From the IMG/VR virus record IMGVR_UViG_3300047554_000329, positions 1 to 64,000 of that record: a DNA stretch of 64,000 nucleotides. The stretch is one strand, 5' to 3'. The notes under the pieces were generated by a model. That model saw only the letters and a program-made list of their open reading frames with translations, was not told the origin of the DNA and made no database searches. Shown here in pieces: positions 3,499-60,307 of the stretch. Numbering within the stretch: position 1 is the stretch's first letter; every line of letters starts with the position of its first letter. The position numbers were made by a program, and so were the translations under genes. Origin of the DNA: a virus.

Positions 3499-3638
3499 AT
3501 CTCTCCTTCTTGTTGTAGTTACAGTATACGATACCCCTCAGACATTTATTCTGGGAAATTTGGGGAAACATCGTAATGAATCGTAATAGAGAAATAATAT
3601 ATATAAAGATATATTATGTTAGGTGGGTCGGGCTCCCC

Positions 3639-3761
3639 CTACTTTTTGGGGCAGACCTTATGACCTATACGCTTGTAGTAGGACTTCCATACCTGACCAC
3701 ATTCTTTACACTGGTAGTAGTCGTAGTAGTCTTCACCTTTGATTTTCCACATTGGCTTCAT
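3639..3761 (-). CDS. 40-aa zinc-finger-like protein
   Basis: MKPMWKIKGEDYYDYYQCKECGQVWKSYYKRIGHKVCPKK*; below ORF-track cutoff; start overlaps upstream stop. Confidence 0.6.
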   Translation of the reverse strand: MKPMWKIKGEDYYDYYQCKECGQVWKSYYKRIGHKVCPKK

Positions 3762-3895
3762 TCGTCATCCTCTACAGGGGCGAACATCATTTGCATACGT
3801 CTAAACTCTTCATAACTAAGTTTATTTACAATGTTCCAGACACGCTCCATACGCTCTTTCTTTTCTTCAAACATTTCTTCTAGTGTTTGTTCCAT
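3758..3895 (-). CDS. 45-aa hypothetical protein
   Basis: MEQTLEEMFEEKKERMERVWNIVNKLSYEEFRRMQMMFAPVEDDE*. Confidence 0.55.
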   Translation of the reverse strand: MEQTLEEMFEEKKERMERVWNIVNKLSYEEFRRMQMMFAPVEDDE

Positions 3896-3996
3896 TCGTC
3901 CTTTGCTTTCTTGATAGTTTCAACGGCATTGGCAATAAGGGCTAATCCAAATACCGCCATTAGTAGAGGTAGAAAAATAAAGAATAGGATTTCCAT
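3880..3996 (-). CDS. 38-aa single-pass membrane protein
   Basis: MEILFLIFLPLLMAVFGLALIANAVETIKKAKDEWNKH*; TAATG coupling to upstream gene. Confidence 0.6.
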   Translation of the reverse strand: MEILFFIFLPLLMAVFGLALIANAVETIKKAKDEWNKH

Positions 3997-4100
3997 TACT
4001 TCCCCAATCCAAAGATGTGGTCAAGGTCGTGGGTGTGGTAGGCATTGCCAATCTTTTCTGGTCTGCCACAGGTTTTGCAAATGTTGTTGTCGTTACTCAT
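3996..4100 (-). CDS. 34-aa protein with CxxC and His residues
   Basis: MSNDNNICKTCGRPEKIGNAYHTHDLDHIFGLGK*. Confidence 0.5.
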   Translation of the reverse strand: MSNDNNICKTCGRPEKIGNAYHTHDLDHIFGLGK

Positions 4101-4293
4101 TCTCTTCGTCCTCGTCTTCCTCATCTTCTTCGTCTAGGGCTTCTACTTCGATAGAGTAAACTCCGTCATAGGTGATAGGGCTGGCGTAAGTTTCTCCCCA
4201 ACTTGTCCAAGCAAGTTGCTCTGCTGCTTCTTCGCTCTCTGCTTCAATCTCACCAGAGAACTCAATCATCATTTCTACTTGGTATCTAGGCAT
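4093..4293 (-). CDS. Very acidic small protein (IEAESEEAA motif)
   Basis: ORF track; start MPRYQVE after GAAAGGAAGG. Confidence 0.75.
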   Translation of the reverse strand: MPRYQVEMMIEFSGEIEAESEEAAEQLAWTSWGETYASPITYDGVYSIEVEALDEEDEEDEDEENE

Positions 4294-4403
4294 TTGCCTT
4301 CCTTTCCTTGTTGTTACTATTTTACATCTACCCTCCGACATTTATTTGGGGAAATCGTAAGGCTATCGTAAATTGATTGGGAGCTTGTAGCCCGACCCAT
4401 CGG

Positions 4404-4474
4404 CTCCCCACCAAGGATTCGAACCTCGATAGCCAGGACCAAAACCTGGAGTCTTGCCGTTAGACGAATGGGGA
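4404..4474 (-). tRNA. tRNA-Gln(TTG), CCA not fully encoded (CCG follows)
   Basis: TCCCCATTCGTCTAACGGCAAGACTCCAGGTTTTGGTCCTGGCTATCGAGGTTCGAATCCTTGGTGGGGAG: acceptor stem, CCAGG/CCTGG anticodon stem, GGTTCGAATCC T-arm. Confidence 0.93.
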
Positions 4475-4477
4475 GTG

Positions 4478-4506
4478 TGAGCAGTTTGAAATCATACTCA
4501 GGATTT
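4478..4506 (-). ncRNA. H-type pseudoknot copy 1
   Basis: AAAUC-C-UGAGUA-U-GAUUU-CAAAC-UGCUCA. Confidence 0.7.
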
Positions 4507-4511
4507 ATGGA

Positions 4512-5531
4512 CTAAGCCATTACAACCTGCTGGACAATCTTCATCAAGCGGTTTTTCTCTGCGTTGATTACAGGGTCAAAGCCAGAAGCACTTGCGTAGA
4601 TGTTTTCGTTGTCGCCACCACGAGCAGAGCGATACCAGTCTAGGCGTTCCGTCAATGCGTTGTAAGCACCCCAAGCAGTTCCGCTAATGGTGTCGTTGAA
4701 CTGACCACGATAGATTGACTGAAGCAGGTCTACCTTGCTGTCGTGCTTCTTGAATGAACCCTTAGCGTCACGCTCAGGAGCAGGGTAGGCAAGGTTGATG
4801 ATTTCTAGGAACTGGTTGTCAGTAACAGTCTTCTCAATCATCTCGTTAGCCATTTTGCTAAACTCGTCAATGTAAGCGTTAGCCAAGCCCAATGCTTCAC
4901 GAGCAACAGCAATCTTGCCTTCTGCGGTAGAAGTGTGACGGATTTTGAATGACTGCTTGCTAGCGTTCTTGCCCTTGAATGACGAGAGAGCAAGGTTTAG
5001 AGTGTTAGCACACACTACACGAACAGGGGTAATGGAAGCCTGAATAGCAATGCTTCCGTCGTGGCTAGTGTTGATTAGCAGGTAGTTGTCAATCTTGTCA
5101 GCAATACCCTTTGGGTCAAGAGTGATTGAGTTTTGAAGAGCGATAGAGCCAAATACCTGACGACCACCCTTGATTGAACCTGCGGTTTCCCAACGACCAC
5201 CGCCGTCTAGTAGGTTGTCACCAAACGAGAATAGGTCTTCGTTCTGGAGTGGAACATAGCGTTCACCAACAACACCAAGAATGTCGTTCTGGTCTTTGTT
5301 GAATGGGTTAGTGCGAGTAACGAAAGAGTAAGACTTGTCGCTAGCAAAACCTGCTGGGACTTCTACATCTTCAAGACGGACATTCCAGTTGTCTAGGTGA
5401 GCCAACTCTAGCATTTGCTGGGTGTTTACTTCTTCTTCGAATACAGTTCCTAGATTGTGCCACGCTGGTTGGCGTAGGCTAGCGAAGGTTGCTTCGCCTG
5501 TTGCTTCGTTGATTTCTAGTTCGTGAGCCAT
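4512..5531 (-). CDS. DUF932 / TIGR03299-type phage-plasmid protein
   Basis: AWHNLG, YVPLQN, WETAGSIKGGRQVF, LLINTSHDGS, TPVRVVCANTL, IRHT, GTAWGAYNALTE motifs. Confidence 0.88.
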   Translation of the reverse strand: MAHELEINEATGEATFASLRQPAWHNLGTVFEEEVNTQQMLELAHLDNWNVRLEDVEVPAGFASDKSYSFVTRTNPFNKDQNDILGVVGERYVPLQNEDLFSFGDNLLDGGGRWETAGSIKGGRQVFGSIALQNSITLDPKGIADKIDNYLLINTSHDGSIAIQASITPVRVVCANTLNLALSSFKGKNASKQSFKIRHTSTAEGKIAVAREALGLANAYIDEFSKMANEMIEKTVTDNQFLEIINLAYPAPERDAKGSFKKHDSKVDLLQSIYRGQFNDTISGTAWGAYNALTERLDWYRSARGGDNENIYASASGFDPVINAEKNRLMKIVQQVVMA

Positions 5532-5678
5532 AAGGCTTCCTTTCATTAGTGGTGGATTGTTGATAGTTCTATTATACAGACACCCACCGACATTGTAAAT
5601 AGTTTAGGGAAATATTTCGGGGAATCGTAACATTAACGTAATAAAGCTTAGTAGGAATGGAGCCCGACCCCCAAAGGG

Positions 5679-5706
5679 GACCAGTTTTACGTCATGGTCA
5701 GGACGT
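5679..5706 (-). ncRNA. H-type pseudoknot copy 2
   Basis: ACGUC-CU-GACCA-U-GACGU-AAAAC-UGGUC. Confidence 0.7.
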
Positions 5707-5716
5707 TCATAGCCCC

Positions 5717-6190
5717 CTATGAAATCACAGTGTAGTTGGAAATGTCAAAGTCACACTCTAGCACTTCGCTGTCGCTGTCGTAGGTGTCGAAGCGAACAAC
5801 ATCACAGTAGGCGTTGTCTGCTACTTCGTCAGGGTCTTTGTCGAATGGGACTTCAAACTCAACAGTAGAAACAATGTCATACTGAATGGTTACACGCTTG
5901 GTTAGCATTACATTGTCAAAGATGTCTGCAATCTTCTGAGCGTTCTCAATGGTGATGTCTTCATCAGAAATCATTTCCTTGAGTAGGTCAGTAAGAGCGT
6001 ATTCTGCCTTGCGATACTTGTCACGAGCGTTGGTTAGTTGAGTGTTGATAAAGTTGTTCTCGTTTTTGTTAGCATCTCGTTCAGCGGAAACGATAGACAA
6101 GTCATTCTCTAACTTACTAATCTTCTCGTTGAGTGCTTGTAGAACAGGGTGAGTGCTAGGGACAAATGTTCCTATGTTGATTTCTTCCAT
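5717..6190 (-). CDS. Hypothetical coiled-coil protein
   Basis: ORF track; start at MEEINIG downstream of the promoter at about 6219. Confidence 0.75.
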   Translation of the reverse strand: MEEINIGTFVPSTHPVLQALNEKISKLENDLSIVSAERDANKNENNFINTQLTNARDKYRKAEYALTDLLKEMISDEDITIENAQKIADIFDNVMLTKRVTIQYDIVSTVEFEVPFDKDPDEVADNAYCDVVRFDTYDSDSEVLECDFDISNYTVIS

Positions 6191-6241
6191 TGGGGCTTCT
6201 TTCTCTTGGTGTGGTTCTATTATAGCGTTAGGGTCAGACAT

Positions 6242-6442
6242 TTATCTGTCTTCCCATTCGGTTAGGTCTTCGTTGTTTAGGACAGCGTGAACAAAGTCAA
6301 ACTTGGCTCCGTCGTTTAGGTTGTCTAGTAGTTCCCATTGGTCTTCGTCTAGAGCGTCTACATCAAACATTAGAACCTGACTAACTCCGTAAGAACCATC
6401 AGTTTCAATCCACGCTCCGTAGCGTGATACATATTCTGCCAT
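6242..6442 (-). CDS. Small acidic hypothetical protein
   Basis: ORF track, GGAAAGG RBS, own promoter. Confidence 0.75.
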   Translation of the reverse strand: MAEYVSRYGAWIETDGSYGVSQVLMFDVDALDEDQWELLDNLNDGAKFDFVHAVLNNEDLTEWEDR

Positions 6443-6637
6443 TTCTTTCCTTTCCTTGTTACTACTATTATAAATAGAACCACGGACATTTATTTGGGGG
6501 AACTTAATGTAGTATCGTAAATGAAATAGCTATGGATAGCCCGACCCCAGGTAGCAAAAATCCCCCTGCTATTTACTAACAAGGGGATTGCTCTGGTAGC
6601 CATATAAGTTTCACTCTGCCACACCAGCCCAGAGTTA

Positions 6638-6667
6638 GAGCCTTTTAGACACTTGCTCAGGTGTTTA
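6638..6667 (-). ncRNA. H-type pseudoknot copy 3
   Basis: ACAC-CU-GAGC-AA-GUGU-CUAAAAG-GCUC. Confidence 0.6.
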
Positions 6668-6683
6668 GGCGTAAGCCTATGGA

Positions 6684-7121
6684 CTAGATTAGGTCTAGAA
6701 CGCTGTTGTAAGTGCTTGCGTTCACAGACTCTTGGTCAGTCAGTTTGAGTAGTTTGAGGGTCTTCTCCAACTGCTCTTTGTGCTGCTTTGCTTGCCAGCC
6801 ACCAACTTCTTGTGGTCGCTCTGGCTTGTCGCCTACCTTAGCAAGCAGACCCCTGCCAAGAACAACCTGAACTGTGTTGCGGTAGTCACTCGTCACAGAA
6901 AGGTTGTCGCTCTCAAACTTGAACTCATCATAAGCAACAAACTTGTTAGCGTTCTTGCCAATCAACTCAGCGACAGCCTTGCCATAAGCCTTGATGTCTT
7001 TGTTGAAGGTAGCGAGTAGACTAGGGTAGTCTTTCTCTGCCTTAGCGATTTCTGCCAACTTGTTCTCAATCATTTCGATAACTGTTGAAGTTGGGATTTT
7101 TACTGATACGGCTCTTGCCAT
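6684..7121 (-). CDS. Hypothetical protein
   Basis: ORF track; start MARAVSVK after AGGAG. Confidence 0.8.
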   Translation of the reverse strand: MARAVSVKIPTSTVIEMIENKLAEIAKAEKDYPSLLATFNKDIKAYGKAVAELIGKNANKFVAYDEFKFESDNLSVTSDYRNTVQVVLGRGLLAKVGDKPERPQEVGGWQAKQHKEQLEKTLKLLKLTDQESVNASTYNSVLDLI

Positions 7122-7187
7122 TTTATTTCTCCTTGTTTGGGGTTGTAACTTTATTATAGTGGGGACTACGGACATTTATTTGTGTGG

Positions 7188-7214
7188 TGGGCAGTTTATA
7201 GTGATACCCAGCAC
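7188..7214 (-). ncRNA. H-type pseudoknot copy 4
   Basis: GUG-C-UGGGUA-U-CAC-UAUAAAC-UGCCCA. Confidence 0.6.
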
Positions 7215-7220
7215 ATTTGG

Positions 7221-7373
7221 TTACTTGATAGTAGACCAGCGAGGCTGACCTGCTACATCAAGACGAACTCGGAACGAGCCGTTCTTGTTAGCCACAACTT
7301 CCTGAACAATGCCAGAAACGCCTGACTTCTGAGTGGTGAACTGTGAGCCAACAGTAGGGATAGTGATTGCCAT
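7221..7373 (-). CDS. 50-aa SH3/KOW-like beta protein
   Basis: MAITIPTVGSQFTTQKSGVSGIVQEVVANKNGSFRVRLDVAGQPRWSTIK*; promoter with TTGATA -35; below ORF cutoff. Confidence 0.7.
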   Translation of the reverse strand: MAITIPTVGSQFTTQKSGVSGIVQEVVANKNGSFRVRLDVAGQPRWSTIK

Positions 7374-8128
7374 TTTTGCTTCTTTCATTAGTTATTTGAT
7401 ACCAACAGGTTTGTTGATACCTCTATTATAGCAAGGGGGTCAGACATTTATCAACTCTACTTGTAATAGAATGTAACATCTTTAGTTTTTATTGGGGAGT
7501 GAGTTTTGTCTCTCCCTTGCTACAGTTCTATTATACGGATACCCACGGACATTTATTTTGGGAAATGGGGGATTTTTATCTTAATCGTAAAAAGTTTTTT
7601 GGTTCAGCTGCCCGACCCTTTCGGGTAGCCTATGAGGAATACAAAAAGTTCTTAGCAACTAGCCAAGTGCGATACATAACTTCATCGTCTTTACCAGAGA
7701 TGTCCCACTCCAATAGTCTGCCTATCAGGTGTGAGTTGCGGTCTTCCAAGTCTGCTAAGACTAAGGCGTATGCCTGTTCTAGTTCTTCGTTCATTAGTAT
7801 CCTGCTCTCTCTAGCATTGATAGTAGTTGGTCTACTTGCTCTGGGGTTAGTTCTTCGATTGCCTGTTCGTTGATTACATTCTCAAACATTTCTCTCCCTA
7901 CATAAACTCAAATGGGTCTCGGTCTTGAAAGATTTCTTCCCAATCTTCCAAAGAGTATTCTTCTGGGTTAGCAAAATAGTCTGCTAATGCTTCACGGATT
8001 TCTTGTGCTTGTTCATCGTTCATAACTTTATTATACATTGGGGGTCAGACATTTATTTCGGGAGGTTTTTAATAGTCTACGTAAAGGAGCTTTGCCTTGC
8101 CTGGATGCCCGACCCCTTTCGGGGTAGG

Positions 8129-8605
8129 CTAATCTTCCTCGTGGTCAAAATATTTGTTTGAGCATTCTACACACATACCAAGTTCTTCTTGGTGAACAAT
8201 AGCCACAACTGGCTCTCCACACTTTTCACAAGGCTTGTAGTGGCTAAAGTGAAATAGCCCTGTTCCTGTTGGTTCATCGTGGCTCCAGCGTCTAGCGGTA
8301 AGGATGTTGTTCTCAAGATACCACTCAATACGGAAGTCACCATTCAAGGCTAATGCTCCGTGTAGTTTATCCATAGTTGTCCATTTGAAGCCTGCCTTAC
8401 GCTGCCAGCCCATTCCTGAGCCGTCAATAAGGATGTGGTCGTTGTCGTCAATGTTGTTGTCTTTCTGCCATTGACCTAGAACATAGAATACAACCTCTTT
8501 CTGCCATTCGTAGCAGTCAAGACATTCTTCGCTAGGTGTTCCGTCTTCATTCTCGCATAGGCAGTCAGTAGTAACTTCAGCGATTAGTTTTTGTGCAGTA
8601 GTCAT
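8129..8605 (-). CDS. Hypothetical protein with two Cys clusters and SHDEPTG motif
   Basis: ORF track; start MTTAQKL after GAAAGAGG. Confidence 0.75.
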   Translation of the reverse strand: MTTAQKLIAEVTTDCLCENEDGTPSEECLDCYEWQKEVVFYVLGQWQKDNNIDDNDHILIDGSGMGWQRKAGFKWTTMDKLHGALALNGDFRIEWYLENNILTARRWSHDEPTGTGLFHFSHYKPCEKCGEPVVAIVHQEELGMCVECSNKYFDHEED

Positions 8606-8779
8606 TGTCCTCTTTCTTGTTGCTTTTAGTTTATCAGTAGCCACAGACATTTTAGTCTAGGTAAGTTTCAAACGAATACAGGTCTTCATCGTGCATTTGG
8701 CAGTAAGCGAAGTAACCTTTAGATACCGCTTCGAAACTAACAACAGACTGGCATCGGTTGCATCGGTAGTATTTAGCCA

Positions 8780-8950
8780 TTAGTAACTCTCCTTGATAGC
8801 CTTTAGTTTGTTTGCTTGACGGCTACCCTTGCGGTTTTCAGGGGTAACGATGTTGTGTTTAGTTAGTAGCATAGACTCAAACAAGACCTTAGCGTGAGCC
8901 TTGCGAGTTGCTTCGTTTAGTTTGCCTAGTGGCTTCGTTCTTTTCTTCAT
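8780..8950 (-). CDS. Small basic protein, probably leaderless
   Basis: ATG 6 nt after TATAAT. Confidence 0.65.
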   Translation of the reverse strand: MKKRTKPLGKLNEATRKAHAKVLFESMLLTKHNIVTPENRKGSRQANKLKAIKESY

Positions 8951-9051
8951 AGTCTTATTATACATCTAGGTTCAGACATTTATTTTGGGAGATTTTTAAT
9001 GTGTAACGTAAAGGGGTTTGGGCTGAGGAGCCCGACCCCTGGGGGTAGCGA

Positions 9052-9573
9052 TTACTCGCCACTCCCTCTCACTACAATCCAGATTAGGGCTTGCATTGCT
9101 CTAGGGGTCATGCCGTGTTTGGTAGCCACAGCGGTTACAGCGTCTGCCATTTCCTTATACTGAGACTGAGTAGGTGTCTTTTTCTCAATGCCCAATGCTC
9201 GCAACATCCAAACATCAATCACGACTGCGTTCTCGTTACCAGCAATAGCCTTAGCAAAGTTGTTAGTCTTTAGACCTTTGAGAGCGTCGAATCCTAGTGT
9301 TAGGGCTTTTTCTGCCATACGGATGTTGTTACCCAACACTCCCTTTAGTTCGTGACCAAGTGAAAACTTCACTGCATTACTAACATTACGAGACCAACGC
9401 TCACGAGGGCTAAAAGCAGATACAACAGTTGCTCCAATCTCAAGGGTAGTGTTTAGGTTAGTTGCTACTTCACGAGCAACGGTCTCAGCGTCTAGATACC
9501 ACTTAGTGGCTTGCTCAACCTGACCAAAGGTTGCTTTCTTAGCGATGTTTGAGTAAATGTCAATGTAGTTCAT
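9052..9573 (-). CDS. Conserved phage protein, possibly DNA-glycosylase (HhH)-like fold
   Basis: WY...SAFSPRERWSRNV...GLKTNNF...VVIDVWMLR...MQALIW pattern; start MNYIDIY after GAAAGG. Confidence 0.6.
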   Translation of the reverse strand: MNYIDIYSNIAKKATFGQVEQATKWYLDAETVAREVATNLNTTLEIGATVVSAFSPRERWSRNVSNAVKFSLGHELKGVLGNNIRMAEKALTLGFDALKGLKTNNFAKAIAGNENAVVIDVWMLRALGIEKKTPTQSQYKEMADAVTAVATKHGMTPRAMQALIWIVVRGSGE

Positions 9574-9801
9574 TGGATTCCTTTCGTTGATAAGATTAGT
9601 ATACATTGGGGGTGGGACATTTATTATCGTAACGTAAAAGAGCTTTTCCCAGGCTGCCCGACCCCCAGCACACCCTAGAAGGGTGGCTGAAGTTCCTCGT
9701 TCTCTCTCCAAAGTTTAGTAACTAGCCTAACAAGGATGATGTTCACTGCCGTAAGAAAAACCACGCCAGCAAGACAAACCCAAATAAGAAAACTAAGCCA
9801 T

Positions 9802-9981
9802 TCATTCATCTCTGCCTCCCCAGCAAGCGTCTACAAACTTTTCGGTAATAAAGCGTTCGTTGTCCTCACGAAACATCTGAGCAAAATCTTCAACCAAGTT
9901 GTCGAAAGTTGTTGCCTCAAAATAGTCAAGGTAGGAGTTTAGGATTGCTGCGGTAGACACATAGTCTTTGCGTGTCATCAT
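9802..9981 (-). CDS. Small conserved phage protein (MTRKDY...DNERF...F..AC)
   Basis: ORF track, trimmed start. Confidence 0.7.
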   Translation of the reverse strand: MMTRKDYVSTAAILNSYLDYFEATTFDNLVEDFAQMFREDNERFITEKFVDACWGGRDE

Positions 9982-10495
9982 TAGTTTTGCTCTCTTTCTG
10001 ATACTTCGATTAGTTTTAGTCTGTCTTTGTCTGATAGCATAGCCCAAGCATAGCCAAAAGCATAAGCGTAGGCTTCCGAGTTGCTAAAGCCTCTGGTGGT
10101 CATTATGTTTTTGATTACTTCGCTGGTTCTGAAGATTAGTTTTTCTTCCATTAGTTTTACCTTTCGTTGTGATTACAGTTTACCAAGACCCACAGACATT
10201 TATTCTGTAGGCTCTTGCCACTCAACGCCATTTACCCAAAAGCGAGCAATACGACCTTTGTAGTATTGGTCTGATAGGTATGGCGTTTGGTCTACATCTA
10301 GAGGACCTTCAATCTCAAAGGTAACTCCATTGTCCATTTCGATTACATAGATGTTCATTGTGTCTCGCATAGTCTTCCTTTCGTGTAGTTACATTTTAGC
10401 AGTAGCCTCAGACATTTATTCTGGGGAAAAATCTGGGACATTTTTAATGGGCTACGTAAACGAGCTTGCGAGGTCGCCCGACCGCCCTGGCTGCC

Positions 10496-10657
10496 TCAGT
10501 CGAAGCAGTTGGGAGCGTCTAGGAACTCGGCATAAGCCTCTTGCAAGGCTTGCTGGCGTTCAGCCCTGTCTTGGGCTGCCAACTCCTCTGGGGAGTATTC
10601 CTCCTCCTCAAAGAAGTAGTCCTCCGAGATGTCGCCCCAGCCGTAGTCGTCTTCCAT
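10496..10657 (-). CDS. Very acidic 53-aa protein
   Basis: MEDDYGWGDISEDYFFEEEEY...; GAAAGG RBS, own promoter. Confidence 0.7.
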   Translation of the reverse strand: MEDDYGWGDISEDYFFEEEEYSPEELAAQDRAERQQALQEAYAEFLDAPNCFD

Positions 10658-10918
10658 AAGTTTTCCTTTCGTTGATAATGCAAGTGTAACAAGACCCACA
10701 GACATTTTGGGGAAAAATCTTAAATCTATTTAATAACGTTTTGGTAACGATGGGGGTCGGGCTCGCAGCTGCTAGGCAGGGCGAACGCAGAGGTTACAGA
10801 CAAACATACTCTTGGCAACTAGCCTAACGAGGTAGGCATCAGCAGGGCGATTGCACAACTCGCAGAGGTGTTGCTTACGCTCTTCGGCGGTTAGTTTGAT
10901 GGCTGGCATAGGGTCTCC

Positions 10919-11164
10919 TTAGTTAGCGTGTGGGTAGTTTGGTGATAGGTCAAGGGTGTTGTAGGTTGCTTCATTCTTGTTCAGCAGGGTCAGGCGATAG
11001 ACGATGCCAGAGTCAGAGAAACGGCGAGCAACCTCAAAGTGTTCACACAAGCCAAAGTTTTTGATGTTCTTGCCGTCTGCGTAGGCTTGGGCAAAGGTGG
11101 GGTAGGTCTGGATGCTCTGGCTCACAAAGAGCAGGTTTGGGCTAAGGGTCAAGGGGAACTCCAA
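10919..11164 (-). CDS. Hypothetical protein
   Basis: ORF track, promoter at about 11184. Confidence 0.55.
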   Translation of the reverse strand: MEFPLTLSPNLLFVSQSIQTYPTFAQAYADGKNIKNFGLCEHFEVARRFSDSGIVYRLTLLNKNEATYNTLDLSPNYPHAN

Positions 11165-11288
11165 TCAATCAACTTACGAAGTAAGTCTAACAGCCACCTC
11201 AGACATTTATTATTATTTTGGGAAACATTTCGGGACATTTTTAATGCGTTACGTAAACCGTTATCATTTCGTTATGAAGCCCGACCCC

Positions 11289-11318
11289 TGTGGATAACTT
11301 TCGCTACCCTGTGGATAA
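11289..11318 (-). promoter_or_regulatory. Two perfect DnaA boxes 21 bp apart
   Basis: TGTGGATAA at 11289 and 11310, directly after GCCCGACCC. Confidence 0.8.
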
Positions 11319-11683
11319 CTATCGTGTCTTAGTGATTAGCAAGTTGAGGTAAGCCTGTCGAATCGCTTCAGGCAGTTGCTTATAGGTTTCGCTTTCGGCA
11401 AGGGTAGTTGCTCCCTTGTGCCAGATAATAGGGTGTAGTTCATCCATAAAAGCTTTTTCGCTTTTGGTCATTCTTGGCTTTGGCATTAGATAGCCTCCTC
11501 AGTAGCGTTGGCGTAGATAGAAGCGATAGAGGCAATAGCCTCCTCATACTCTTCCCAAGTATCAAACTTTAGAACAATCATTAGTTTACCTTTCGTTAGT
11601 TACAGAATACCATTAGGGTCAGACATTTATTTGCTAGGCTCACCTTGCGGATTATTTGCTAGGCTCTTGCGTGACCCTAAAAC

Positions 11684-11827
11684 TTACTTGTTTAGTTTGT
11701 CAAACTGAAACTGAAGCCAGTGAACCTCGTCATAGTCTTCAGGCGTGTCAATGCCTAGGGCGATTAGTTTGCCTAGGTTTTCAATGGCTAGGTCTAGGGC
11801 TAGTTTTGCGTCAAGTGCTTTCTTCAT
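11684..11827 (-). CDS. 47-aa hypothetical protein
   Basis: MKKALDAKLALDLAIENLGKLIALGIDTPEDYDEVHWLQFQFDKLNK*; GAAGGA RBS, own promoter. Confidence 0.6.
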   Translation of the reverse strand: MKKALDAKLALDLAIENLGKLIALGIDTPEDYDEVHWLQFQFDKLNK

Positions 11828-11945
11828 TTATTCCTTCTTTCTATCTACCTATAAGGTATCACGAACCACGGACATTTATTATTGTTTTGATAGGCTTTTA
11901 GCCCTATTGTTACGCATTGTTACCAAAATGTTACCAAACTTGGGG

Positions 11946-11991
11946 AACTAGATGTAGTGGTCTTAAGGTAAATGGCTACTAGATGTTGTGG
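11946..11991. promoter_or_regulatory. Tandem NrdR boxes
   Basis: ACTAGATGTAGTG (11947) and ACTAGATGTTGTG (11978), 31 bp apart; fit the CwAnATnTwGTG NrdR consensus. Confidence 0.75.
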
Positions 11992-12221
11992 AGCCCGACC
12001 CACGCTGTCGGGCGTGTCGCCAGGGTAGAGCTAGAACGGTGGCTTATTCCGTTCCAACTCCTCCTCTAGTGACTTGATAACCATTGACTTGTACCAAGCA
12101 TAGGTAGCCCAGCCCATTGACAGGAATAGAATCCAAGAAAGTGTAGGTGACATTTTTTCCTTTACTGATTGACTAGAACGAATAGAGCGATTAGAAGAAG
12201 ACTACCAATGACCACAGACAT

Positions 12222-12380
12222 TTAGATTGTTCCCCCTAGTTTCTCAATGTGACGAACAAGAGCAAGCATAAAATCTAGTTCTGCCATAGACAAGTAGTCT
12301 AGGTTTTCGGCTTCACGAACGAGCGAGTTTAGTTTTAGTTTTGCTTGCTTCAGGGTCAAGTCTGCTAGTGCTGTTTCCAT
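12222..12380 (-). CDS. Small helical hypothetical protein
   Basis: ORF track; start METALAD after GAAAGG. Confidence 0.65.
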   Translation of the reverse strand: METALADLTLKQAKLKLNSLVREAENLDYLSMAELDFMLALVRHIEKLGGTI

Positions 12381-12631
12381 TTTGTTACCTTTCGATTGGT
12401 TTGAGTTTAGCATAGGGGACGGACATTTTACTTTAGGATTTCCCAAGACTGCAGAAAGCCTTGAGCAAAAAGTTTCTTTGCCCAACGCAAGTTAGCAGGA
12501 GTATTAGGAATGATAGCGGAGCGACCCTCTGGGGTGATGATTTCGATTTGCATACCTGCAGTCTATCAGACAGGTCAGACATTTTGGGAAAATATTTGGG
12601 ACTTTTTTAATTCGTTACGTAACTGTTATAT

Positions 12632-12647
12632 TCGAAATTCTGTTCGA
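12632..12647. promoter_or_regulatory. Actinobacterial LexA SOS box (1 mismatch)
   Basis: TCGAAA-TTCT-GTTCGA vs TCGAAC-N4-GTTCGA; 1 nt before GCCCGACCC. Confidence 0.7.
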
Positions 12648-12707
12648 AGCCCGACCCCAAAAAGCTGCAAATGTCAAGTCCGACACGCCACTATTTTAGA
12701 CAAAAGA

Positions 12708-12737
12708 AAAACCCCAAGGTAGCGAACCAAGGGGTTT
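12708..12737. terminator. Bidirectional intrinsic terminator
   Basis: AAACCCC...GGGGTTT stem flanked by A and T runs. Confidence 0.7.
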
Positions 12738-13249
12738 CTTTTTGAAAGAATAGAGAACAAGTTTCCGAATTGCAGTCACGGAACCTATCTAGCGAATTGC
12801 TCAAAGTCAATCATTGCTCAGAGGATACATTTCATTCTGACTAGTATCTCATCCACGGCTAACCATAGTTTGTTGTTTAACATTTCTTTTTGTTTCTCTA
12901 TTTAATTTTCAATACTTTTAGTATAGCATCTTGGACTGACATCTGTCAAATCCGACACGCCGATTAGCGGATGAAGATTGCTTCTACGCTGTAGAAGTCA
13001 TCTCCTTCATAGCCACGGAAGATTGCTTCCGCTTGCTTGAAATCAACTACTAGAGATTCAACAATCTCCTTAGTCTCTTTTACCATTACATTCACTTGAT
13101 ATTTCATCATTTGATTTTTCCTATCTCTTAGATTCTTACTTATTTACTTTTTCTTTATACCCTTATTATAGGCATAAGCTCAGACAAAAGTCAAATCGAC
13201 ACGCCGTATTTTGGGGAAATTTTTTATAGCGTTATAAAAAACGTTATAT

Positions 13250-13265
13250 TCGAACAGATTTTCGA
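13250..13265. promoter_or_regulatory. Actinobacterial LexA SOS box (1 mismatch)
   Basis: TCGAAC-AGAT-TTTCGA; 1 nt before GCCCGACCC. Confidence 0.7.
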
Positions 13266-14122
13266 AGCCCGACCCACGCTGTCGGGCGTGTCGCCCTGGT
13301 AGCCCTATGGGATTAGACCTGCTGCCCATAGCAATAGGCTAACACTGCCTAGCACTAGCACACTGGCGAGGGTAACCATTATGACAATGGTCAAGTCATC
13401 TACTAGGTTACGCATTAGTTACACCATAGGCAGTTGATGTCGTCACAAGGGTTTTCTTCTGAGTAGTCTTCGTTTTCGTTCATTTGGTTTCTCCTTCTTG
13501 ATTACAGTTTACTTGATAGGTCAGACATTTATCGGTTGCGAACAAGGTCACGAACCTTGTCGATAAACCAACCTAGGGCTGGAGCGATAAGCACAAAGCC
13601 TAAGCCTAGGGCTACTACTGTTAGGATTGCTGTTACTACTGACATTTTCTTTTCCTTTGCTTCCTTGTAGTTACAGTCTATACCACTGGGCAGACATTTT
13701 GGGGGATTTTAACGTATATCTTATGTAACAATTTGGTAACGAAGCCCGACCCCAAAATCCTGGATTTGTCAAGTCCAAGCTTGGGCGTGTCGCAGGGTAT
13801 CTAGTGAGTGTCTAGCCAGTGCATTACAAAAGCAACAGCACCAACACCTAGAGCAGTCACGCCTAAGATTATCCAGACAAATAGTTGAAACATTTCCCAG
13901 TTCATTAGTTACCTACCTTTTCGTTGATACGGATAGCAGAACCTGCCTTGATTACGCCTACTAGAGCAGTAGCCTTCTTCATTGCTTGCTCACCATAGTA
14001 AGCAGACACTACTACCTTGAACGCTTCACCGTTCATTAGGTAACCGCCTACTTGCCATTCAGTCATTCTGTTCATTAGTTTACCTTTCTTGTTGTTATTA
14101 GTTTAGCAGATACCACAGACAT

Positions 14123-14293
14123 TTAGTCACAAAAGTAGCAACCGAATGAGTCATCGACAATAGCACCACACTGGTCACAGTCAGGGTATCGCTCTGGAGT
14201 CATTGCATCAGCGAGGGCTATGTTATCACGCTCAATCTTGTCAGCGTTCAACTGTGCTACTAGGTTTGCTACATACTCTAGGTCTACTGTCAT
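14123..14293 (-). CDS. Small protein with C-terminal zinc ribbon
   Basis: CDQC...CYFC; start MTVDLEY. Confidence 0.7.
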   Translation of the reverse strand: MTVDLEYVANLVAQLNADKIERDNIALADAMTPERYPDCDQCGAIVDDSFGCYFCD

Positions 14294-14475
14294 TTTTCTG
14301 TCCTTTGCTTCCTTGTGATTACAGTCTATACCATAGCACAGACATTTATTACCAAACACGCCAAATAAATGTAACAATTTCGGGGAAAAATCGTTATAGT
14401 TCTTAGCTTGACAAATCTCAAAATTTGGGTCGGGCATTTTTTTGTGGGAATGTCAAGCGACACGCCCAAACAAAG

Positions 14476-28013: not shown

Positions 28014-31000
28014 ATGGCTAATCCTTCTAATCTTTATGCAGAAAGGGTGTTTTCAGAACATCCAATCGCTCTATGGTCCCTAGATGACAATGCTGGATTT
28101 GCTTCATTTATATCTGATGCCAACAAAGACTTGACTACCTGGACTAAAACAGGTTCTGGAACAGTGGCAGATTTCAATAATGCAGACTTTCCTTATCCAA
28201 TACTTGAAAACGATAAGACTGCACAAGTTTCTATTTCTGGTTCAGCAAGCTCAATAACTTTGACAAGTGCTGCCACCTTTACATCTACACAAGCAGAAAC
28301 ATTTTCTATTGGATTTTATTTTTATGACAATAGCCAAAAGATTACAAAGATTGAGGTTGGCTATGGAGCAAGCCTATTTGAAGTAGACCTTCCAAAAGAA
28401 GGTAGCTATGTTACAGATAGACAATGGATACTTGTCTCAAAACAGATTACAGCAAGAGTTGCAGCAGCATCAAGCATTATAATTAAAGTAACATATGACG
28501 CTCCTACTGGAACACAGACATTTCTGATTAATGGTGTATCCATTGGAAACCATTCTGAAGAATTTAATGGCTCAACCACAGGACAATATCCAAGTACATT
28601 TCCAGCAACAGTAGCAAAAACAACTTATGCCTGGAGTGGAACCGCACAAAGTTCATCTTCAACCGCAACATATTTAGATGGAACCACTCGTACCAACTTA
28701 GTAAAAAATCCAATTCCATCTACATCAACAGCAGTGTCTCCACAAGAAAACTGGTCTGTAATCAACCGAGGAACTGGTGGTGCAGGAACTACAACATTAA
28801 CTGCTGCAGGTGCTAGTGACATTGTGACTACTGCTGCATCAACTACTGCATATTCTTTTGGTATATCAGGAACAACAAATGCTCAAAGAATTCAGGTTAC
28901 CGCTGGTCAGACATATGCAGTTTCTTTTTATGCAACATCAAGCATTAATGACGTTCGTAGAATTGCAGCCACATTTTATAACTCAGCTGGAACAAGTCTT
29001 GGAGAATTTCCAATTGCAACATTTACAATGACAGCAGGGGTAGAGGTAAGGCTTTATGGAACTGTTACTGCTCCTGCAAATGCTGTCTCAATGCGTTTTT
29101 ATGCTGGTGCTACTACTGGTTCTGTTATTCGTACACTAAACTCAACAATGATTTGGCATAGTGCTCTTGCAGAAGAAACATCTACAATAGGCACATATTT
29201 TGATGGCTCTACAAACCATACAGTAATATCTGCAGACTCATACGGTTATGCAAATTATGATGGATATTATGTTGTAAAGAATGGAAAGCTTTTAGCATCT
29301 AATTCTGGAATGCCAATGGTTTATGGTGCTTCTAATGCTACATCATGTTTTTATCAAGATGATGAAGGAGACCCATCCTTAATTCTTCCTGCTGCTGGAT
29401 TTCTACATTCAAATGGCAATGGAAATTCACTATCACTTGAAGCATGGCTAAGAATTGTATCTACAGCAACAACAGAAAAAAGAATCTTTGGTCCAATCGG
29501 TTCTACTGATGGGCTGTATGTAAGCGGTCCATTCCTAATGCTAAGAATTGACTCCAACTATGGTATGCATTATGTTGGTGAATGGGGCAGACCAATGCTA
29601 ATCAATATTAACGTATTTGATAATGGGGCAAACCTATTGGTAAACGGTGAAACAGCTATTTCTCTAAGTTTTGCAAAAGACGACATTGCGTTTAGTGAAG
29701 ACGATACAGAAGACTTTATTGGTTTCTATGCTCACAGCGATATTCCTAGAATTGATGTAGACTGTGTTGGCATCTATCCATATGTTGTTCCGCAAGAAGT
29801 TGCAAAACGTAGATACATTTATGGTCAGGGTATCGAGTTTCCAGAAGAACTAAACAAAGCCTATAACGGAGAGTCATTTCTTGTTGACTACTCTTTTGCA
29901 AACTACTCAAACAACTCTGTGTACCCAAATACCTTTAAGTGGAGCGAAGCATTAGTAGAAAATCTTGCAGTGGTAAATAACACACTGGCATTGCCAAGCT
30001 ACACTAAGCCAACAGTATTTCATGAATCGCTAACAGAGTCAGAATTTTTGTCAGCACTTTATACAACAAATATTGCAGATACTGGAAGGTCAAAAAACTT
30101 CTTTCAATTTGAAACAGGAGAAGAAGGCTACTTTATTTTTGAAAGCCTAGAGCAAATTGCAGATAAGACATCAGCGATTTATGGAGTATTCTCTAGAACT
30201 GAGTCAACAACCACAGAGCAAGTGCTAATAAAGATATTTGATAATAACTCAGGAGATTACCTAAAGGCATCTCTTCTAAACTCAAACGTAGTTTACTCAT
30301 TCTACTCTGGTGGGGTAGAGGTTTGGACAGACACAATGGCTGCCACAATATCAGTAGGAGAAGACTTTGTTTGTGGGTTTAGTATTAAGCAGATGGCTGA
30401 GAATAATAGTGTTGAGGGCTTGTCTAGATTCCTATCAAACTCTAGAAACCTAAAGGTATACATTGCTGGTGGAGACACAACATCTTCTGCTGGAAAGATT
30501 TCACTAACACACACTTTTGACGGATACATCTACTCTGTTGGATTCTCAAGTCCAAGAAACTACAACAAGATAAGTTCCTATTTTGATTCAACCAGCGGTG
30601 TAATTGAAAACGTAGATACAGGAGCAACTGTTACAGCACTGTTAGACCACTATGCGTCATACACCCTGATTGCTAAAATTATTGCAGAACAGCTAGTTAT
30701 CGATATTGCAATCGATGGATACTGGCAAGACTATATTCCACTTTCAACACTATCTAAATATATTCTAAACAGCTCATCTGAACAAGAGTACGATATTGAC
30801 TACATTCAGTTTAATATAGACTATCCAAAAGCAGTAGACACATCAAGCTCAATTGTTCGCTCATACCTAAGCTTTCAGACAATTGCTAGCGGTGCAAATT
30901 CTATACCAGGAACCAAGGTAGCCCTAGCTAGCGACAATGCAGTTATTGCAGATGCATCATGGGCAACAAAGATGTACGAAGTTGTAAATGGCGACGTTAT

Positions 31001-31988
31001 TTATCCACCATCATCAGTAGATAACCAAACTCTTGCACTAGATATTCATCTAGAGTTTCAGGTAGATGGAATTTTGTCTAATCCATTGTTCATTAGAGAG
31101 CTGCAAATTTCTTCAAAAGCACTAAACACATTTGAAAATCCAATTGACTCTAGACTAGGAACTAGTGCCTATCCATACGTTCTTGATGGAACAGAGTTTG
31201 ACTATAAAGCAAGTAATCCGATAAAGATTTATAAAGGAAAGACACCACATTTATATCTAACTGACGAGTCTGGAGTAGGACTGGTTGGAACTGCAACATC
31301 TGGAACAAGAGGAATTTACTTTAAGGTAAACAAGAAAGATGATTCCTTCTATAAGGTTAGTTCGATGAACATGGTTGTTAAATACCCAGGAACAGAGTTT
31401 CCAGCATCAGCTACAGAAATTTTTAACATAGAAGATAACGTAGTTGGAAAAATTTCTTTTTATGTAGTAGCAACAAATAGCGACGGTACAAGAGGAAAGA
31501 TTTATGCAGAAAAGGATGCTGCAGCATACTACAACGCAATCATCTTTGTTAATGGAAACAGAACAGGTCAGGCAGAGCTAAACATTGGTCAATGGAACAG
31601 TCTCGGAATATCATTTACAAGCATTCTAGATTTTGGTGGCACAGATGAAAAGAAGATTAATGTCCTAGACAAGCTACTAATAAACTCATTGTCATTCTTC
31701 CAGGTGTCAGATGAAGAATCTAACCAATCTGTTTCTATATCAACATGGAACGACATATCTGTTGATATTTGGGATGATTGGGATGCTACAACATGGTATG
31801 ACCTATTACTTACAGAAAGTGCTCCAAAGATTTATGGAATTAACCCAAAGGATATCTTCCAAATCTACACAGGAACACACAAAATTATTGCGTATTCTGA
31901 CAATGATGCAGTTATCCAGTTCACAGCAGACGGATATCGTGCATATTTGAACTATTCACCGTTAACTTATACCATCACTCCTGCATAA
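28014..31988 (+). CDS. Large virion protein with lectin/CBM-like regions
   Basis: 1324 aa; HPIALWSLDD start; Thr/Ser/Ala-rich segment beginning RTNLVKNP. Confidence 0.65.
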   Translation: MANPSNLYAERVFSEHPIALWSLDDNAGFASFISDANKDLTTWTKTGSGTVADFNNADFPYPILENDKTAQVSISGSASSITLTSAATFTSTQAETFSIGFYFYDNSQKITKIEVGYGASLFEVDLPKEGSYVTDRQWILVSKQITARVAAASSIIIKVTYDAPTGTQTFLINGVSIGNHSEEFNGSTTGQYPSTFPATVAKTTYAWSGTAQSSSSTATYLDGTTRTNLVKNPIPSTSTAVSPQENWSVINRGTGGAGTTTLTAAGASDIVTTAASTTAYSFGISGTTNAQRIQVTAGQTYAVSFYATSSINDVRRIAATFYNSAGTSLGEFPIATFTMTAGVEVRLYGTVTAPANAVSMRFYAGATTGSVIRTLNSTMIWHSALAEETSTIGTYFDGSTNHTVISADSYGYANYDGYYVVKNGKLLASNSGMPMVYGASNATSCFYQDDEGDPSLILPAAGFLHSNGNGNSLSLEAWLRIVSTATTEKRIFGPIGSTDGLYVSGPFLMLRIDSNYGMHYVGEWGRPMLININVFDNGANLLVNGETAISLSFAKDDIAFSEDDTEDFIGFYAHSDIPRIDVDCVGIYPYVVPQEVAKRRYIYGQGIEFPEELNKAYNGESFLVDYSFANYSNNSVYPNTFKWSEALVENLAVVNNTLALPSYTKPTVFHESLTESEFLSALYTTNIADTGRSKNFFQFETGEEGYFIFESLEQIADKTSAIYGVFSRTESTTTEQVLIKIFDNNSGDYLKASLLNSNVVYSFYSGGVEVWTDTMAATISVGEDFVCGFSIKQMAENNSVEGLSRFLSNSRNLKVYIAGGDTTSSAGKISLTHTFDGYIYSVGFSSPRNYNKISSYFDSTSGVIENVDTGATVTALLDHYASYTLIAKIIAEQLVIDIAIDGYWQDYIPLSTLSKYILNSSSEQEYDIDYIQFNIDYPKAVDTSSSIVRSYLSFQTIASGANSIPGTKVALASDNAVIADASWATKMYEVVNGDVIYPPSSVDNQTLALDIHLEFQVDGILSNPLFIRELQISSKALNTFENPIDSRLGTSAYPYVLDGTEFDYKASNPIKIYKGKTPHLYLTDESGVGLVGTATSGTRGIYFKVNKKDDSFYKVSSMNMVVKYPGTEFPASATEIFNIEDNVVGKISFYVVATNSDGTRGKIYAEKDAAAYYNAIIFVNGNRTGQAELNIGQWNSLGISFTSILDFGGTDEKKINVLDKLLINSLSFFQVSDEESNQSVSISTWNDISVDIWDDWDATTWYDLLLTESAPKIYGINPKDIFQIYTGTHKIIAYSDNDAVIQFTADGYRAYLNYSPLTYTITPA

Positions 31989-59462: not shown

Positions 59463-60307
59463 ATTCAGACTACATTATCTTCTGCCCATTCCACAATAAC
59501 CATCGCTCACCTGCTGGAGAAATTGACAAGCGTTCTGGGTTCTTCTTTTGCTTCTCCTGTCAGCACGTTTGTGACCTAACTGCTTTTGTTATGCATACTT
59601 CTAGTCGTACCTACTTTGAGGCGGTACGCTTTATTAAATCCAAGGAAACAGAGACTGACCTTTCTTATCAAATTAATCAAGCATTGGTGGTCAAGCCAGA
59701 CTACACACCATACGATGAATTGCAGATTAAACGACTAAACCAGCAAGCTCTAGACTCTCCTAGAGCATTAAGATACTACTCTGGAAGGCTCATAAACGAG
59801 GCTTCAATCCGCAAATTCGACTTGGGGTATAGTGAGAAGCAAGACATGGTTACAATCCCTGTAGCGTCCCCTGAAGGCGTTTCAGTGGGGTTTGTGGGCA
59901 GGTCCGTAGAGGGTAAAGACTTTAAAAATACACCAGGACTGCCAAAGAGCAAAGTCCTATTTAACCTACACAGAGTAAAAGCATCTAGTAAAGTCTATGT
60001 GGTTGAATCATCATTTGATGCAATTCGACTTGACCAGTGTGGCTTTCCTGCTGTAGCAACTCTTGGAGCAAACGTATCCAAGATACAAACAGACCTACTT
60101 CAAAAGTATTTCAATGAGATATATGTCATTGCAGATAACGATGAAGCTGGCGGTAACATGAAAGACAAGCTTATTGAAAGACTTGGCAGCCGTGTTAGCG
60201 TTATCAAATTAGATAAACAATATAAGGATATTGGCGATATGTCAGATGAAGCAATCAAGAATCTTGAGGAATCATTTGACAATACTATCGCTGGTATGCT
60301 AAACTAG
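59366..60307 (+). CDS. dnaG: DNA primase (CHC2 zinc finger + TOPRIM)
   Basis: CPFH...CFSC, VVESSFDA, DNDEAG, KDIGD. Confidence 0.92.
   Translation: MDYRNRRNSSVYTPEQIKRVLAGSGINVESEVDSDYIIFCPFHNNHRSPAGEIDKRSGFFFCFSCQHVCDLTAFVMHTSSRTYFEAVRFIKSKETETDLSYQINQALVVKPDYTPYDELQIKRLNQQALDSPRALRYYSGRLINEASIRKFDLGYSEKQDMVTIPVASPEGVSVGFVGRSVEGKDFKNTPGLPKSKVLFNLHRVKASSKVYVVESSFDAIRLDQCGFPAVATLGANVSKIQTDLLQKYFNEIYVIADNDEAGGNMKDKLIERLGSRVSVIKLDKQYKDIGDMSDEAIKNLEESFDNTIAGMLN

Follow-up and report, generated by a model that had tools for sequence, protein, structure and literature searches.

The first 64 kb of the 92,924-bp viral record IMGVR_UViG_3300047554_000329 (41.9% G+C), the stretch of DNA that was analysed here and that we call the window, carry an array of small early genes interrupted by sixteen copies of a 9-mer, GCCCGACCC, hereafter the word. 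Here we report that the joints at which early-gene cassettes meet have this 9-mer as their core, and that the core is particular to the genome. Related phages carry words of their own at the same place in the joint, and comparison of their sequences with that of the present phage (G000 in the comparisons) shows that each genome has its own word and that the copies change in concert. The reading that we tentatively prefer, at clearly less than an even chance, is that the word serves as a double-strand docking site for a putative phage-specified factor that insulates each regulated cassette.

The window contains 15 exact copies of GCCCGACCC, 12 on the plus and 3 on the minus strand, where dinucleotide shuffles gave a mean of 0.03 copies and a maximum of 1. 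The 16th copy, GCCCGACCG at 10476, departs from the word by one mismatch, lies in an equivalent junction and brings the orientation to 13:3. All 16 copies are intergenic, between minus-strand early genes, and are confined to positions 3625-14435 with a copy-to-copy spacing of 278-1272 bp; no further exact copy was found in the whole record. A preliminary description, made from the letters alone, had listed 16 intergenic copies in either orientation restricted to the early region, 13 of them forward and 3 reverse, and had pointed to inverted partners at 11993 and 13267. Its tally stands, with 12 exact forward copies, 3 exact reverse copies and the forward variant; the inverted partners are present as well (7-bp arms and a 7-nucleotide (nt) spacer, at 11993/12007 and 13267/13281), at only 2 of the 16 copies. 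In this genome at least 8 of the 9 positions of the word are G or C. The array and its word copies are as follows.

3625-14435, minus strand: early-gene cassette array, split by 16 word copies
3625-3633, minus strand: word copy, inverted relative to the majority, 5 nt past the stop of the open reading frame (ORF) at 3639-3761
4390-4398, plus strand: word copy, next to tRNA-Gln (4402-4474, minus strand), whose 3' end is 3 nt away
5662-5670, plus strand: word copy, exact match
6539-6547, plus strand: word copy, exact match
7610-7618, plus strand: word copy, with an ACCC-GAAA-GGGT mini-hairpin before it on the sense strand
8107-8115, plus strand: word copy, with a CCCC-GAAA-GGGG mini-hairpin before it on the sense strand
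9030-9038, plus strand: word copy, exact match
9656-9664, plus strand: word copy, exact match
10476-10484, plus strand: variant word copy GCCCGACCG, 1 mismatch, in an equivalent junction
10754-10762, minus strand: word copy, inverted, exact match
11279-11287, plus strand: word copy, adjoining two DnaA-box-like TGTGGATAAC sites at 11290-11330
11993-12001, plus strand: word copy, local inverted partner GTCGGGC at 12007
12649-12657, plus strand: word copy, preceded at 14 nt by TTGACA and followed by TTCGAA-N6-TTCGAA, both as read on the sense strand
13267-13275, plus strand: word copy, local inverted partner at 13281
13744-13752, plus strand: word copy; on the sense strand TTGACA 14 nt before it
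14427-14435, minus strand: word copy, inverted, with a TTGACA arm on either side; the array's first joint

Along the sense (minus) strand the word lies 5-46 nt past a stop codon or, in one case, 3 nt past tRNA-Gln, and at 16 of 16 copies it is followed 36-118 nt later by a promoter core, TGTCYG-N10-TAnnnT. About 29 minus-strand cores of the form (A)AATGTCYG-N10-TAnnnT lie in the window between 1379 and 14730. The 16 that bear a word are separated from it by 20-60 nt of variable, operator-like DNA; the other 13 or so abut the preceding stop codon and have neither the operator-like region nor the word. The operator-like DNA includes a DnaA-box-like pair (the TGTGGATAAC sites at 11290-11330), two TTCGAA-N6-TTCGAA sites resembling the Gram-positive LexA box (12632-12648 and 13250-13266), a repeated ACATCTAGT-type box (two copies about 31 bp apart, 11946-11991) and TAACG repeats about one helical turn apart; the TGTGGATAAC, TTCGAA and ACATCTAGT sites touch the word. 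The sequences flanking the word had been described as varying independently on its two sides. This holds for the 20-60 nt that touch the word; it fails on the gene-proximal side, where the same promoter core recurs at every joint. The cores that follow the word are listed here.

3523-3544, minus strand: promoter core, 80 nt downstream of the word at 3625
4319-4340, minus strand: promoter core, 49 nt after the word
5571-5592, minus strand: promoter core of the DUF932 gene (4512-5546), 69 nt after the word
6467-6488, minus strand: promoter core, 50 nt after the word
7530-7551, minus strand: promoter core, 58 nt after the word
8030-8051, minus strand: promoter core, 55 nt after the word
8957-8978, minus strand: promoter core, 51 nt after the word
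9598-9619, minus strand: variant promoter core (TGTCCC), 36 nt after the word
10393-10414, minus strand: promoter core, 61 nt after the variant word
10683-10704, minus strand: promoter core, 49 nt after the word
11184-11205, minus strand: promoter core, 73 nt after the word
11853-11874, minus strand: promoter core, 118 nt after the word
12560-12581, minus strand: promoter core, 67 nt after the word
13165-13186, minus strand: promoter core, 80 nt after the word
13675-13696, minus strand: promoter core, 47 nt after the word
14323-14344, minus strand: promoter core, 82 nt after the word

By its sequence this predicted early promoter core matches the hybrid promoters that are read with PafBC in actinobacteria; these lack a -35 element and combine a canonical -10 with a -26 element that is recognised at a GTC triplet (PMC8635444). 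Relatives carry TGTCGGTGG or TGTCAGTGG in place of this form. Two other conserved features were seen near the joints. The motif GGCGTGTCG, which CTTGACA often follows, occurs at 12010, 13284 and 13783 (plus strand), at 14457 (minus strand) and in many related loci, and is kept family-wide, unchanged in genomes whose words differ. Just upstream of several words, on the minus strand, lies CTGRGYAT...AAACTG...CCC (4478-4506, 5679-5706, 6638-6667 and 7188-7214), which is shared with relatives.

Ten relatives were collected through their portal protein, and their words were called by k-mer enrichment. None of the ten contains GCCCGACCC; each has its own G+C-rich 8-13-mer as the top early-region word, at the same place in the joint (GGGG[TG/CA]CCCC in G001, whose portal is 97% identical; GCCCGAGCC in G002; GGGCTAGCCC in G003). 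A second collection of 80 early-region loci was gathered through the conserved DUF932 early protein, and words could be classified in about 55 of them. At least 21 word classes were found in 55 genomes, among them GGGGGTACCCCC (15 copies), GGGGGCCCCC (17 copies), GGGGCGCCCC (12 copies), GGTCGGCA, GGGGCGCA and GGCCGACC. Nearly every called word is strongly G+C-rich, and in most relatives the orientation is mixed, at about 50:50. Placed on the DUF932 tree (55 tips), the 21 classes require at least 31 changes, against a mean of 44.4 after shuffling; the word therefore switches often and follows the tree only loosely. GCCCGACC is common to this phage and a single, distant locus (L272, in genome G016; DUF932 78% and portal 72% identical), and G016 holds 13 copies of it, all within one 14-kb stretch. 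A search for near-identical DNA in a phage collection returned tRNA matches only, and a scan of that collection for the word together with TTACG gave single chance matches only.

The manner of switching is seen most directly in the eight junctions that could be matched between G000 and G001. Most of their flanks are 85-100% identical (at the joint at 11279, for example, 66/70 upstream and 90/95 downstream), and at 8 of 8 the word differs at 4-5 of its 9 positions, which rules out neutral drift as the cause. Within this genome, conversely, 15 of 16 copies are identical though the flanks touching them differ. Intermediate steps were also found: a pair of loci (L285 and L287) with flanks about 93% identical shows single-nucleotide differences within the word, and some genomes hold two word variants one base apart. 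Stepwise change combined with near-uniformity in each genome can persist only under selection for matching, whether with a reader or among the copies themselves; the single-nucleotide steps and the two-variant genomes would be in keeping with a binding protein that tolerates some variation in its site.

Small CCCC-loop-GGGG hairpins overlap several of the copies, and two copies have the 7-bp inverted partner, as might be expected if the word worked in RNA, forming one side of a hairpin that terminates or processes the early transcripts. However, when foreign words were placed into 75 unchanged joints of 10 genomes they folded equally well (mean change in predicted folding free energy -0.11 kcal/mol, lower in 41 of 75, p=0.60), and the left arm CTACCCC is retained in genomes where the word has changed and can no longer pair with it. 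Rfam recognised only the tRNA and nothing at the word, intrinsic terminators in the window showed no excess over shuffles, and the word is found in either orientation. The flanks thus have no pairing adapted to the word, and the word is therefore not an RNA hairpin arm; of the explanations weighed here we hold action through RNA to be the least probable. The earlier suggestion of an orientation-independent site at the DNA level is supported by these folding results and by the balanced orientation in relatives.

It had also been suggested that gene-order breakpoints between related genomes might fall at the 9-mer, and they do. Cassette order varies among relatives, and blocks of homology begin or end at the word. 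Neighbouring gene families were still adjacent elsewhere in 37% of comparisons across a word and in 67% of those without one (56 loci). Per-joint adjacency averaged 0.39 with the word and 0.60 without it (p=2e-17), and it averaged 0.57 at other gaps of at least 60 nt (p=1e-9 against word joints); both p-values are optimistic, as the joints of related genomes are not independent. The same left-flank types pair with different right-flank types, and the joint at 59958 of G001 combines an upstream flank that corresponds to that of joint 13267 of G000 (63/68) with a downstream flank that corresponds to that of joint 14427 (75/78), so that by alignment it appears to be a re-joining at the word.

These rearrangements are what would be expected if the word were primarily a recombination joint, a mobile regulatory cassette boundary at which cassettes are cut and re-joined at a short identical sequence, through microhomology or an unrecognised site-specific system. 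The copies would then have to match one another rather than a reader, and would drift together through gene conversion. The phage encodes RecA, and there is a precedent in the promoter-early stem-loops (PeSLs) of T4-type phages (PMC2839356, PMC4122927). Other observations fit this explanation poorly. No recombinase or integrase was found among the phage proteins, and recombination between non-palindromic words in both orientations would invert cassettes, yet the early genes keep one strand. Nor was there any sign of compatibility groups, as distant genomes that share a word have no more early gene families or cassettes in common than others have. RecA-type exchange needs far more homology than nine base pairs. 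We consider it unlikely that recombination is the primary role, while giving this alternative more weight than the other rivals of the docking-site reading.

PeSLs resemble the present joints in several respects: each is a composite element that joins the end of one unit to the next promoter, is repeated between small accessory early genes, coincides with breakpoints of insertion, deletion and reshuffling between relatives, and has a consensus that differs between phage groups. Variable accessory ORFs with breakpoints at the element were found here too. The conserved part of a PeSL, however, is a stem-loop followed by a sigma-70 promoter, whereas here it is a single 9-mer with a PafBC-type promoter; a promoter follows at 16 of 16 copies, and the word is not an arm of any stem. 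Furthermore, the 9-mer occurs in either orientation, is exact in each genome and is replaced wholesale between close relatives. Integron attC sites and clusters of attC sites lacking integrases (CALINs) likewise divide small gene cassettes by a recurring site. An attC site, however, is an imperfect inverted repeat folded from single-stranded DNA, the cassettes of such arrays are promoterless and an integrase is needed; this phage, in contrast, has neither a folded inverted-repeat site (2 of 16 copies have a partner) nor promoterless cassettes, and Pfam searches found no integrase.

A further possibility is that the word has no reader and is a structural GC clamp, a block resistant to melting placed after a 3' hairpin or terminator, which would slow or stop RNA polymerase or prevent DNA opening and which, in a third of cases, stands at the -10 position of a -35-like hexamer. 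That hexamer, TTGAC[AT], is found at a distance of 13-16 bp (mode 14-15) and directed towards the word, on one or both sides, in 130 of 363 copies from 47 genomes, whatever the orientation of the word; no coupling between word orientation and the side of TTGACA was detected in this set. The spacing would put the word at the extended -10/-10 position of a sigma-A promoter. A clamp would account for the high G+C content, for the irrelevance of orientation, for the failure to find a trans-acting factor and for the position of the word in Streptomyces BE-cluster phages, directly after a GC hairpin and a short T run. Under this explanation the identity within a genome would be a side-effect of joints having been copied from one another. 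G+C content by itself, however, explains neither the identity of 15 of 16 copies beside divergent flanks nor the replacement of 4-5 of 9 positions at all eight matched joints; conversion tracts limited to 9 bp are hard to picture, and the window is not enriched in intrinsic terminators. We judge a clamp without a reader to be improbable.

The preliminary description had further proposed a Chi-like protective site, a programmed nick or a staged-injection signal. A host-nuclease signal, nick site or DNA-entry stop would be in keeping with the confinement of the word to the early region, which lies in or beside a long terminal repeat in G003 and in BE-cluster phages, and with the 13:3 bias of the present genome. 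On the other hand, Chi-type sequences are host-determined, co-oriented and dispersed. The word lies only at the joints of an 11-kb region, and the balanced orientation in relatives argues against a strand-specific role; at least 21 words with at least 31 switches on the 55-tip tree do not suit a signal set by the host. The Chi-like site, with more than 20 different words among close relatives, is not supported, and this group of explanations as a whole is very improbable.

We return to the docking-site reading. Of the candidates named in the preliminary description, a binding site for a phage protein and a crossover point for cassettes are the two that still stand. Along the sense strand a joint runs from a stop codon or tRNA through a 3' structure and the word into 20-60 nt of variable, operator-like DNA (with TAACG repeats, pairs of DnaA boxes and boxes of the LexA-like and NrdR-like kinds), after which come a PafBC-type promoter and the genes of the next cassette. 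A sequence-specific factor, itself specified by the phage, would recognise the word in double-stranded form, and the occupied site, placed where each regulated promoter region begins on its upstream side, would serve as a roadblock or insulator that keeps transcription of the preceding cassette from running through, in the manner of a stoperator or operator array. The specificity of the factor would shift fast between relatives, all joints of a genome would be kept matched to it, and the re-joining of cassettes at the word would be a by-product. We favour this reading because every copy separates the end of a gene or tRNA from a promoter core, because the wordless promoters abut a stop codon and lack the operator-like region, because the relatives carry words of their own in this position and the matched joints have all changed theirs amid flanks that are mostly conserved, and because orientation is mixed and foreign words leave the folding energy unchanged. 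Moreover, stoperator motifs are known to differ among phage subclusters together with their repressor (PMC6550527).

The search for a reader of the word weighs against this interpretation. When families were tested one by one for identity residuals beyond general relatedness, and for class-specific presence, none within 10 kb on either side of DUF932 covaried with word class (about 55 classified of the 80 loci), and no class-specific family recurred at a fixed position in these loci. G000 and G016, both with GCCCGACC, share no specially similar protein. No terminal-repeat protein of the BE-cluster phages tracks the word, and no such protein of Bmoc is closer to Yaboi, which has the same word, than to Evy, Angela or Navo. 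Pfam searches gave zero matches to helix-turn-helix proteins, repressors or integrases, and no word copy that could be, for example, an autoregulatory site lies outside the joints of the record. Two individual candidates were rejected. A CCHC zinc-finger mini-protein (3639-3761, minus strand; 40 residues, CxxC-x12-H-x3-C) is one of a family seen at about 15 related loci, and its finger is near-invariant across word classes, which likewise tells against the reading. The second, a 1324-residue ORF (28014-31988, plus strand), has no homologue in the G016 contig, which is 84% complete.

That ORF matches nothing in Pfam or PHROG, and the homologues detected in seven relatives, G001 included, share only 32-37% identity with it; the neighbours of the ORF (NrdJ and a 128-residue ORF before the portal gene) are 97-99% identical to those of G001. 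From this comparison it appears to be a hypervariable, swapped allele.

A related proposal is that the word is a fast-switching self-identity code, one arbitrary G+C-rich word per phage read by a putative factor. Such a factor could be carried in the virion, encoded far from the early region, or be something other than a protein, and concerted switching would give relatives mutually incompatible early regions, amounting to exclusion or an immunity-like system among Stanwilliamsviridae-like actinophages that appear to be lytic. We regard this as a speculative proposal with a lowish probability. A small share of probability, like that given to the clamp, goes to an explanation outside those considered here.

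Among known protein-DNA arrays, the stoperators of Cluster A mycobacteriophages (PMC6550527, PMC9283540) come close: both are sets of many short asymmetric sites in short intergenic gaps of actinobacteriophages, with motifs that differ between related phages, and a short asymmetric intergenic repeat with a lineage-specific motif is what was found here. Stoperators, however, are 13-14 bp long, spread genome-wide and mostly in one orientation relative to transcription, whereas the word is 9 bp, restricted to the early array and mixed in orientation (13:3 here, about 50:50 in most relatives). Stoperators are bound by a known, covarying immunity repressor, while no repressor or covarying protein was found in the present case. 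The conserved inverted repeats (CIRs) of the temperate phage phiC31, as Ingham and colleagues are said to have reported in 1994, are 17-bp palindromes bound by the c repressor. They too are highly conserved intergenic operator copies beside non-canonical early promoters in an actinophage early region; the word differs in being shorter, often asymmetric and genome-specific, and in occurring in a phage that shows no lysogeny genes.

The other features of the record are these. Small minus-strand ORFs lie between about 1 and 15.5 kb, with tRNA-Gln(UUG) (4402-4474, minus strand) inside the early array, its 3' end 3 nt from a word copy. Beyond 16.5 kb the genes are on the plus strand and encode a collagen-like fibre, NrdJ, portal, protease, capsid and tape measure, followed by DnaB, primase, Pol III alpha and RecA; ThyX, PstS and glycosyltransferases are encoded past the end of the window. 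No RNA polymerase, integrase or repressor was recognised among the phage proteins, and no lysogeny genes were recognised. DUF932 and portal place the phage near Streptomyces BE-cluster phages (Stanwilliamsviridae). A search with PstS for the host gave weak matches only (32-46% identity, mostly Actinomycetota); PafBC-type promoters, LexA-like boxes and the Streptomyces-phage relatives point to an actinobacterial host phylum. The last ~130 bases of the record duplicate its first, annotated in IMG/VR as direct terminal repeats. This overlap compares with a direct terminal repeat of about 8.5 kb in G003, the contig of locus L034 (1-8517 = 116024-124540), which takes in some of the early cassettes; T5 and the BE-cluster phages are arranged likewise.

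The BE-cluster phages, which have been cultured on Streptomyces, carry their early genes in a terminal repeat of about 11 kb (PMC5764925). Their joints follow the same plan: a stop codon, a GC hairpin whose loop is TTCG, a short run of T residues, the word, 15-25 nt and a -35/-10 promoter. The word is GGCCGCCCCGGCC in Bmoc (11-16 copies), CCGCCCCGG in Yaboi (17 copies) and, in a more variable form, [GC]CCCGGAC(A) in Evy, Angela and Navo. In Yaboi (L341), at least 6 joints between 3312 and 9604 also have a palindrome-containing box, TCAAAAGATCTT, right after the word, which may be a further operator. On the evidence of these sequences the word appears to extend to the whole phage family; no mention of a word-type element was found in the papers examined on these phages (including PMC5764925).

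Repeats at early-gene joints are thus already known, and what appears to be new is a word that is exact within each genome and arbitrary between genomes, that may face either way and that changes together at joints with nearly constant flanks; we found no description of such a word in the papers examined on these phages. The Streptomyces phages Bmoc and Yaboi offer bench models for the element. If there is no reader, the word would be a clean case of concerted evolution of a 9-bp site, for which a mechanism would be needed. If a reader exists, the two would constitute a new and highly evolvable recognition pair, of protein and DNA or of another kind, controlling the genes of host takeover, and this could explain how close relatives avoid cross-regulation.

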